In this document: positions 8,439-9,630 of the stretch, piece by piece
How the letters are laid out: every line of letters begins with the position of its first letter
How positions within the stretch are numbered: the stretch's first letter is position 1
Virus record (IMG/VR): IMGVR_UViG_2537562013_000016
Location: 1-9,704 of that record
Length of the DNA stretch: 9,704 bases
Strand: one strand, 5' to 3'
From: a virus
Taxonomy: Duplodnaviria > Heunggongvirae > Uroviricota > Caudoviricetes
Notes under the pieces: model-generated
Database searches by the model: none
What the model was told of the DNA's origin: nothing
What the model saw: only the letters and a program-made list of their open reading frames with translations
Made by a program: the position numbers and the translations under genes

Positions 8439-9630
8439 ATGGCATTAACCGATATTAAAGTGAAAACCGCAAAACCAAAAGAAAAGCCCTATAAACTTGC
8501 TGATGGCGGCGGTATGTATCTACTGATTAACACTAATGGTTCTAAATACTGGCGTATGAAGTACCGCTTTGCTGGTAAAGAAAAGATGCTTTCTATTGGC
8601 GTATACCCCGATGTAACGCTAGCCGACGCTCGTGAAAAACGCAGCGAAGCCAGAAAAATCCTCGCTGCTGGAGGCAATCCAGGGGTGGCAAAAAAAGAAG
8701 AAAAAATCGCGCAACAAATGAGTTTGAAAAATACGTTCGAGGCCATTGCTCGCGAATGGCATCAGTCAAAAGCCGATCGGTGGTCATTACGCTATCGTGA
8801 TGAAATCATTGATACCTTTGAAAAAGACATTTTTCCCTACATTGGCAAACGCCCTATCGCCGAAATCAAACCAATGGAGTTACTGGAAGCACTGCGTAAA
8901 ATGGAAAAACGTGGAGCTCTGGAGAAAATGCGCAAAGTCCGCCAGCGCTGTGGTGAAGTGTTCCGCTATGCAATTGTTACTGGTCGGGCAGACTACAACC
9001 CTGCTCCCGATCTTGCCTGTGCTTTAGCTACACCGAAAAAAGTACATTTTCCCTTTCTTACTGCTAATGAACTTCCCCACTTCCTCAACGATCTGGCGGG
9101 TTATACCGGAAGTATCATCACTAAGACAGCTACTCAGATCATTATGTTAACTGGTGTACGAACACAAGAATTACGTTTCGCACGCTGGGAGGATATCGAT
9201 TTTGAGACAAAATTATGGGAGATTCCGGCAGAAGGTAATGAAGATGAAGCGACCTCATATTGTGCCGCTCTCTGAGCAGGTCATTGCCCTATTTAAGCAA
9301 CTTGAACCCATCACAAAACATCATCCTCTGGTCTTTATCGGTAGGAACGATCCTCGCAAGCCAATTAGTAAGGAAAGCATTAACCAAGTCATTGAATTAC
9401 TGGGATATAAGGGAAGACTCACAGGGCACGGTTTCAGACACACCATGAGTACCATTCTGCACGAACAGGGCTTTAATTCCGCCTGGATTGAAATGCAGTT
9501 AGCTCATGTGGATAAAAACGCCATCAGGGGTACCTATAATCATGCCCAGTATCTCGATGGTCGCCGTGAAATGATGCAGTGGTACGCAGATTATATTGAT
9601 TCGCTTTATAAGCAAGAGAGTCAGGGTTAA
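8439..9630 (+). pseudogene. int: P4-type tyrosine integrase interrupted by a single-nucleotide frameshift near 9234-9240
   Basis: Track ORFs 8439..9275 (278 aa; P4-integrase-like N-terminus MALTDIKVKTAKPKEKPYKLADGGGMYLL, box I Arg in TGVRTQELRFARWEDIDF) and 9154..9630 (158 aa; HGFRHT and catalytic Tyr in RGTYNH) overlap in different frames; 1192 nt from start to stop is not a multiple of 3; frame 1 stops at 9273-9275. Confidence 0.85.

Follow-up and report, generated by a model that had tools for sequence, protein, structure and literature searches.

Integrases that have decayed at the end of a tRNA-borne island are well described, and so are tandem arrays of elements at selC. The integration target of P4 is leuX, and P4 Int (440 aa), like the integrase studied here, recombines at the 3′ end of a tRNA gene. 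In Escherichia coli O157:H7 (e.g., strain BB24-1) a P4-like prophage and LEE are found together at selC, in the order tRNA-Sec, satellite integrase, cargo, psu-delta-sid … alpha, att core and a second integrase opening the next island. The cryptic P4-family prophage of this array goes by the name 933L. In ETEC H10407 the island at selC contains an integrase, an IS3-family element, leoABC and tia, and the distal copy of its core is found 45.3 kb downstream, just before setC. PAI tia is about 46 kb long, is located at selC and has direct repeats on its flanks (PMC7545054).

The window analyzed here (the whole stretch of 9,704 nt) is identical to the complete 9704-bp draft contig AQCU01000213.1 (GCA_000354395.1), and both of its ends are assembly breaks. 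Two mobile elements appear to be stacked at tRNA-Sec (selC) of an E. coli strain, a P4-like satellite next to selC and behind it an older island of the tia/leoABC type (as in ETEC H10407), and the window spans their junction. The right-hand end of the window contains a frameshifted gene, which would be the P4-family (CP4-type) tyrosine integrase of the island. Very probably, a recent +1 insertion has made a pseudogene of this tia-type island integrase, and the neighboring satellite keeps an enzyme of its own.

The junction of satellite and island at selC

From left to right, the satellite and the junction are made up of the following features.

1–8119, strand not applicable: P4-like satellite, right-hand part (identity to P4 and to 14EC007, gene calls and Pfam)
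1–596, minus strand: satellite cargo gene, partial
about 630–695: cos region
818–1390, minus strand: psu
1464–1964, minus strand: delta
1961–2695, minus strand: sid
3247–3513: alpA/vis
between alpA/vis and alpha: cI/ash region, epsilon, orf151 and orf106
5308–7641: alpha primase
after alpha: crr and distal att arm
8120–8140, plus strand: att core of 21 bp, GACTCCTGTGATCTTCCGCCA, identical to the 3′ end of tRNA-Sec (selC)
8141–8438, plus strand: integrase-proximal arm and leader of the island, 298 bp, identical to the selC-integrase interval of H10407

Positions 654–7989 match P4 (11624–4291) in reverse orientation with 98.1% DNA identity (∼7.3 kb), up to the P4 cos end. This stretch covers cos, psu, delta, sid, the immunity region, epsilon, alpha and crr, and the P4 homology stops near the att region. 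Positions 1–8141 are 99.7% identical to the selC P4-like element of strain 14EC007. The part from 1 to 8140 has the features of a P4-like satellite, with ORFs as long as their P4 counterparts. Exact look-ups of Psu and Sid returned only other genomes, since both proteins occur very widely (617 and 10566 index blocks, respectively), yet these genomes showed how such satellites are generally laid out. Rfam gave gathering-level matches on the plus strand to c4-a1b1 (3572–3624), isrK (3585–3662) and C4 antisense RNA (3770–3857), and the region 3572–3857 looks like a P4-type RNA immunity region that is apparently intact.

The window begins inside a cargo gene, in the variable region of the satellite between cos and the satellite integrase. 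A complete cargo pair (386 and 190 aa) could be identified in the sibling contig L005 (413–2158) as the PADLOC candidate defence PDC-M18A/B (E = 2e-34 and 2e-14, respectively), and neither of the two proteins had a Pfam match.

The 21-bp core is shared by the two elements: it forms the right end of the P4-like satellite and at the same time bounds the island on the left. ARAGORN found no complete tRNA in the window, which shows that the core is a repeat rather than the tRNA gene. The arm to the right of the core is identical also in frameshift contigs without a satellite, and it is unlike the integrase-proximal arm of the satellite itself. In a six-way alignment of the junction, the window corresponds to the distal arm of the 14EC007 satellite on the left side of the core and to the DNA after tRNA-Sec in H10407 on the right side, where it resembles neither the integrase-proximal arm of the satellite nor the setC side of the host. 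At 8119, contigs with the satellite have T and those without it have the true tRNA base, C, which sets the left limit of the shared core at 8120.

From 8117 to 9704, only two differences from H10407 were found: a mismatch at the junction, immediately left of the core, and a gap that corresponds to the extra G. The presence of the island arm to the right of the core and this near-identity to H10407 indicate that the frameshifted gene begins a second element. With an integrase end that matches H10407 save for these two differences, and with the distal repeat located in H10407, this element is an island of the tia type.

Position, recurrence and predicted effect of the frameshift

The integrase gene is composed as follows (residues are numbered as in the intact allele).

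8439–9275, plus strand: integrase 5′ frame, 265 native residues, then 13 out-of-frame residues and a TGA stop
9159–9161, plus strand: Arg241, 5′ of the break, kept in the 278-aa product
9234–9235, plus strand: +1 insertion, GG against a single G in all intact relatives (either base)
9235–9630, plus strand: integrase 3′ remainder in the +1 frame, Val266–Gly396, with ATG codons at 9238 and 9244
9241–9243, plus strand: Lys268, 3′ of the break, other frame
9427–9429, plus strand: His330, 3′ of the break, other frame
9436–9438, plus strand: Arg333, 3′ of the break, other frame
9505–9507, plus strand: His356, 3′ of the break, other frame
9535–9537, plus strand: Tyr366 nucleophile, 3′ of the break, other frame
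9678–9693, plus strand: terminator-like hairpin and T-run, 3′ of the integrase stop codon

Where one integrase is expected, the list of ORFs contains two overlapping frames, 8439–9275 (278 aa) and 9154–9630. The first frame reads ...WEIPAEGNEDEATSYCAAL followed by a stop, its end being ...LWEIPAEGNEDEATSYCAAL, and the second reads ...VMKMKRPHIVPLSEQ...HGFRH...RGTYNH... and is open to the stop at 9628–9630. At 9228–9240 the window has GCAGAAGGTAATG, compared to GCAGAAGTAATG in its closest relatives. A pairwise alignment of 9150–9320 with ETEC H10407 gave one extra G as the sole difference in 171 columns. The initial annotation had proposed a one-base insertion within 9228–9245, and the extra G is indeed found there, at 9234 or 9235, so that the frame is broken after Glu265 (codon 265).

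A megablast search of 8400–9704 against 5426 complete E. coli genomes gave best matches of 99.9% identity, with 1304 bases against the 1305 of the query. In these best-matching genomes a continuous 1191-bp gene for a 396-aa tyrosine recombinase is annotated (e.g., WP_001218920.1 in ETEC H10407), which agrees with the length of about 396 aa previously suggested for the intact protein. The same 81-nt stretch is present in 1107 complete E. coli genomes and lacks the extra G in every one, so the insertion is derived. As it is the only difference from H10407 within the gene, the event appears to be recent.

Programmed frameshifting or recoding was considered and rejected, as there is no slippery heptamer or prfB-like context at 9228–9245 and the frame is uninterrupted in all 1107 complete genomes that contain this stretch. 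A promoter scan of 7640–9704 gave no promoter candidate for the integrase; it returned one promoter-like site, on the minus strand, compared to a mean of 4.7 in shuffled sequences.

An exact-sequence look-up found the 278-aa product on at least 24 contigs (31 index blocks), which represent fewer than 24 independent observations, several carriers being sibling isolates from one project (E. coli MP021017.x). The carriers include GCA_000355515.2, GCA_000356725.1, GCA_000354415.2, GCA_000354475.2, GCA_029999815.1 and the Logan assembly of run ERR9938098. At least GCA_029999815.1 (a later NCBI assembly) and the Logan run are from other submissions. In the cluster table the truncated product is found on 19 contigs (named E. 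coli MP021017.5 and MP021017.6) and the intact 396-aa allele on 701. The GG version, GGCAGAAGGTAATGAAG, is present in all six loci that were fetched.

The initial annotation had also allowed for a homopolymer or assembly error. There are some reasons for caution, as the window is a short contig of a draft assembly, the insertion is found in no complete genome, and two further C-for-A differences separate the window from all four of its siblings, which may indicate a modest consensus quality. However, the same truncated product recurs in different assemblies and sequencing runs (several NCBI assemblies and the independent Logan run) and in two genomic contexts, and a run of one to two bases is atypical for systematic homopolymer error. 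Recurrence in at least two unrelated submissions makes an assembly error very unlikely, and we see almost no chance that the true gene is intact. The frameshift is real and is inherited in a small lineage.

The two C-for-A differences are located at 4485 and 7625 and may be either real private SNPs or draft consensus errors. The change at 7625 falls in alpha, and the exact alpha protein is found only on the contig of the window, consistent with an altered protein. In an exact-pattern scan, a 38-mer spanning the frameshift had no match among the IMG/VR viral contigs, which means that this collection does not list the element as a virus.

According to Pfam, the 278-aa product has an Arm-DNA-bind_3 domain (residues 3–88), a Phage_int_M domain (100–193) and only profile positions 2–58 of PF00589. 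The downstream frame corresponds to PF00589 profile positions 64–170, and the break thus lies between positions 58 and 64 of 172. The arm-type (PF13356) and core-binding (PF22022) domains of the 278-aa product score 101 and 123 bits, respectively, in keeping with membership of this integrase family, and its domains match solved domain structures of CP4-like and CPS-53 integrases (1e-22 to 1e-33).

The catalytic residues were mapped by aligning the intact allele with the satellite-type selC integrase, the LEE-side integrase of O157:H7 and P4 Int. The columns of R241, K268, H330, R333, H356 and Y366 are invariant in this alignment. Together with Pfam it bears out the earlier claim of a break between box I and the HxxR/Tyr residues, i.e., after Arg241 and before Lys, HxxR and Tyr. 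All six catalytic residues are encoded, yet they are split over two frames, and no single polypeptide carries a complete catalytic domain. Judged from its sequence, the gene is a P4/CP4-type tyrosine integrase by descent and a predicted pseudogene by structure.

In the established mechanism by which tyrosine recombinases act, cleavage and rejoining of DNA depend on the Tyr, Lys and HxxR residues. Because Lys268, His330/Arg333, His356 and Tyr366 are missing, the truncated integrase would by this catalytic mechanism be unable to cut or rejoin DNA. With the G inserted after codon 265, translation would end 13 codons later, leaving a protein that keeps the arm-binding and core-binding domains and Arg241 and loses the remaining catalytic residues. 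This would disable self-catalyzed excision and integration of the island but not of the satellite.

It is extremely unlikely that the split gene has kept its function, whether through ribosomal frameshifting or through reassembly of the 278-aa N-terminal part with a C-terminal fragment started from the ATG at 9244. The inserted G does turn AAGT into AAGGT (window 9232–9246), which is weakly Shine-Dalgarno-like and lies 7–8 nt upstream of ATG 9244. Gene callers also predict a 128-aa C-terminal fragment from this ATG (in L009 and L010), and the fragment matches PF00589. The 3′ part has no other mutation compared to H10407, but so recent an event would not be expected to have been followed by others. 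A slippery motif is absent at the site, the frameshift is kept in no relative, and even if ribosomes moved by +1 at the CUC-UGA stop further downstream, the Lys268 segment would remain replaced. Moreover, Arg241 would be on one chain and the other catalytic residues on another, with the division falling within a β-hairpin of the catalytic domain.

Ownership of the broken gene and history of the array

The broken gene had initially been taken for the integrase of the satellite, which would then be unable to integrate or excise by itself and be either locked in or kept as a plasmid. In favor of this reading, alpha, attP and int are adjacent in circular P4, in the same order and orientation as alpha, att core and int in the window, and the window alone cannot separate attP from a tandem junction. 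The gene is, however, found outside the 8120–8140 core, beyond the right-end att core of the satellite on its alpha side, and it has the arm of the island; the DNA from 8141 onward is that of the H10407 selC island. This arm is not the one found beside the satellite integrase in 14EC007, where the order is tRNA-Sec, a 395-aa integrase, two cargo genes, psu-delta-sid … alpha, a second tRNA 3′ end and setC.

In every other P4-like locus that we fetched the integrase is located beside the tRNA, on the psu/cargo side, and alpha lies at the opposite end of the element. An integrase beside alpha is seen in fewer than 1% of sets and reflects a neighboring element (Moura de Sousa and Rocha, PMC8628076).

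Four sibling contigs align to the window without gaps; L005, L007 and L010 have 2 differences in 9704 bases and L008 has 3. They extend further to the left, where a 395-aa integrase with three Pfam domains is called beyond psu and the two cargo genes, i.e., at the psu/cargo end of the same satellite. In L005, where the last 418 bases of this gene were read and the length of 395 aa is from the recorded gene call, the visible part (the catalytic C-terminal 138 codons) is in frame and identical to the intact 14EC007 gene, encoding ...WEIPAERMKMRRTHLVPLS...HGFRH...GTYNH... and a stop. The satellite and island integrases share 70% protein identity.

These siblings, differing by only 2 or 3 bases, point to a satellite integrase at the selC-proximal end of the satellite in the window as well, outside the contig. 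The DNA left of base 1 is known from the sibling contigs and not from this assembly, and we infer the presence of selC and of the satellite integrase there. The claim that the satellite is immobile by itself does not agree with this separate 395-aa gene. The plasmid idea finds no support, as the contig has a selC att core and its near-identical siblings lie in chromosomal contigs of up to 512 kb, and a circular or plasmid attP was rejected in view of the arm and these siblings. Downstream of the frameshifted gene the siblings continue with the IS3-family element and leoA/B of the tia island, as in H10407, and with no P4 genes. Finally, the same frameshifted gene and arm are also found beside selC without any satellite. 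That the frameshifted gene belongs to the satellite is therefore exceedingly improbable.

As an integrase of the island, the gene can be followed through its carriers. According to a tally of the exact-product look-up, the satellite is present in 16 of 24 places and absent in the other 8. In L006 and L009 the frameshifted gene and its arm are located directly 3′ of an intact tRNA-SeC, with no satellite in between. L005 and L006 both have leoA/leoB-type genes downstream, and L006 has tia as well. Over the first 11 kb of the island, the two contigs are identical except for one single-base gap and a 2.5-kb insertion in L005. The frameshift thus occurs with and without the satellite, which makes it a property of the island. 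Based on these sequences, the satellite would have entered or left selC after the island integrase was broken, or the broken allele may have spread by recombination. In either history the mobility of the satellite would be independent of the frameshifted gene.

The extra insertion of ∼2.5 kb in L005 (13400–15950), compared to the satellite-free L006, contains IS66-family genes. In L006 the first 11 kb of the island (9703–20837) differ from H10407 by 2 mismatches and the inserted G, while the chromosomal flank from recG to selC (1–9702) differs at 54 of 9702 positions (0.6%). The island is far less diverged than its flank. Its age in this background is therefore much lower than that of the chromosome, which suggests that it was recently transferred or recombined in. 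The interior of the H10407 island (L032:12420–15684) has sce7726-family (P4 cII-like) and beta-family genes beside integrase fragments, and these resemble the remains of earlier P4-like elements that were incorporated into the selC array. At leuX in other E. coli (L023 and L024, about 3200–7400) a P4-like alpha is followed by a second integrase of 422 aa, so tandem stacking beside satellites recurs at other tRNA sites.

The break might also be more than neutral decay, although we consider this very unlikely. The 278-aa fragment, which keeps both DNA-binding domains, could bind the shared selC core and the island arm sites near the right end of the satellite, and could there modulate or block recombination by the 70%-identical satellite integrase. 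Alternatively, the satellite integrase could act in trans on the att sites of the island and be the sole driver of mobility for the whole selC array. Still less likely is the reassembly of N- and C-terminal fragments into an active split integrase.

Comparison with known selC arrays and P4-family integrases

The truncated protein is already deposited (e.g., EMU75699.1) and is an ordinary decaying island gene of an already known kind. The main value of the analysis lies in the corrected ownership, since pipelines that pair P4-like core genes with the nearest integrase would score the satellite as defective. The insertion may also mark a very recent stage in the fixation of a virulence island within one ETEC-like lineage. 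The selC sites with and without the satellite form a natural pair that carries the same broken island integrase, and their sequences suggest that the satellite moved in or out without the enzyme of the island.

The closest known system is the tia island (ROD-20) of H10407. The 21-bp selC core and the 298-bp arm are the same at both loci, and so is the protein sequence of the integrase (WP_001218920.1) save for the frameshift. The locus described here differs in its extra G, which ends the protein at 278 aa, and in 16 of the 24 places a satellite has come to lie between selC and the island.

The selC array of O157:H7 has the same tandem layout of P4-like element and island. Its second integrase has 95% protein identity to the H10407 allele and is annotated as intact (393 aa). 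The LEE is found behind this second integrase and the cargo includes a dCTP deaminase, while the corresponding positions are here taken by tia/leoABC and the PDC-M18 cargo.

P4 Int is more distant (46% identity), but shares the three-domain architecture and the conserved R-K-H-R-H-Y residues with the gene studied here. It contains a 12-residue insert where this gene is broken. Whereas P4 Int belongs to the satellite itself, the gene described here is part of a large island and has selC as its target.
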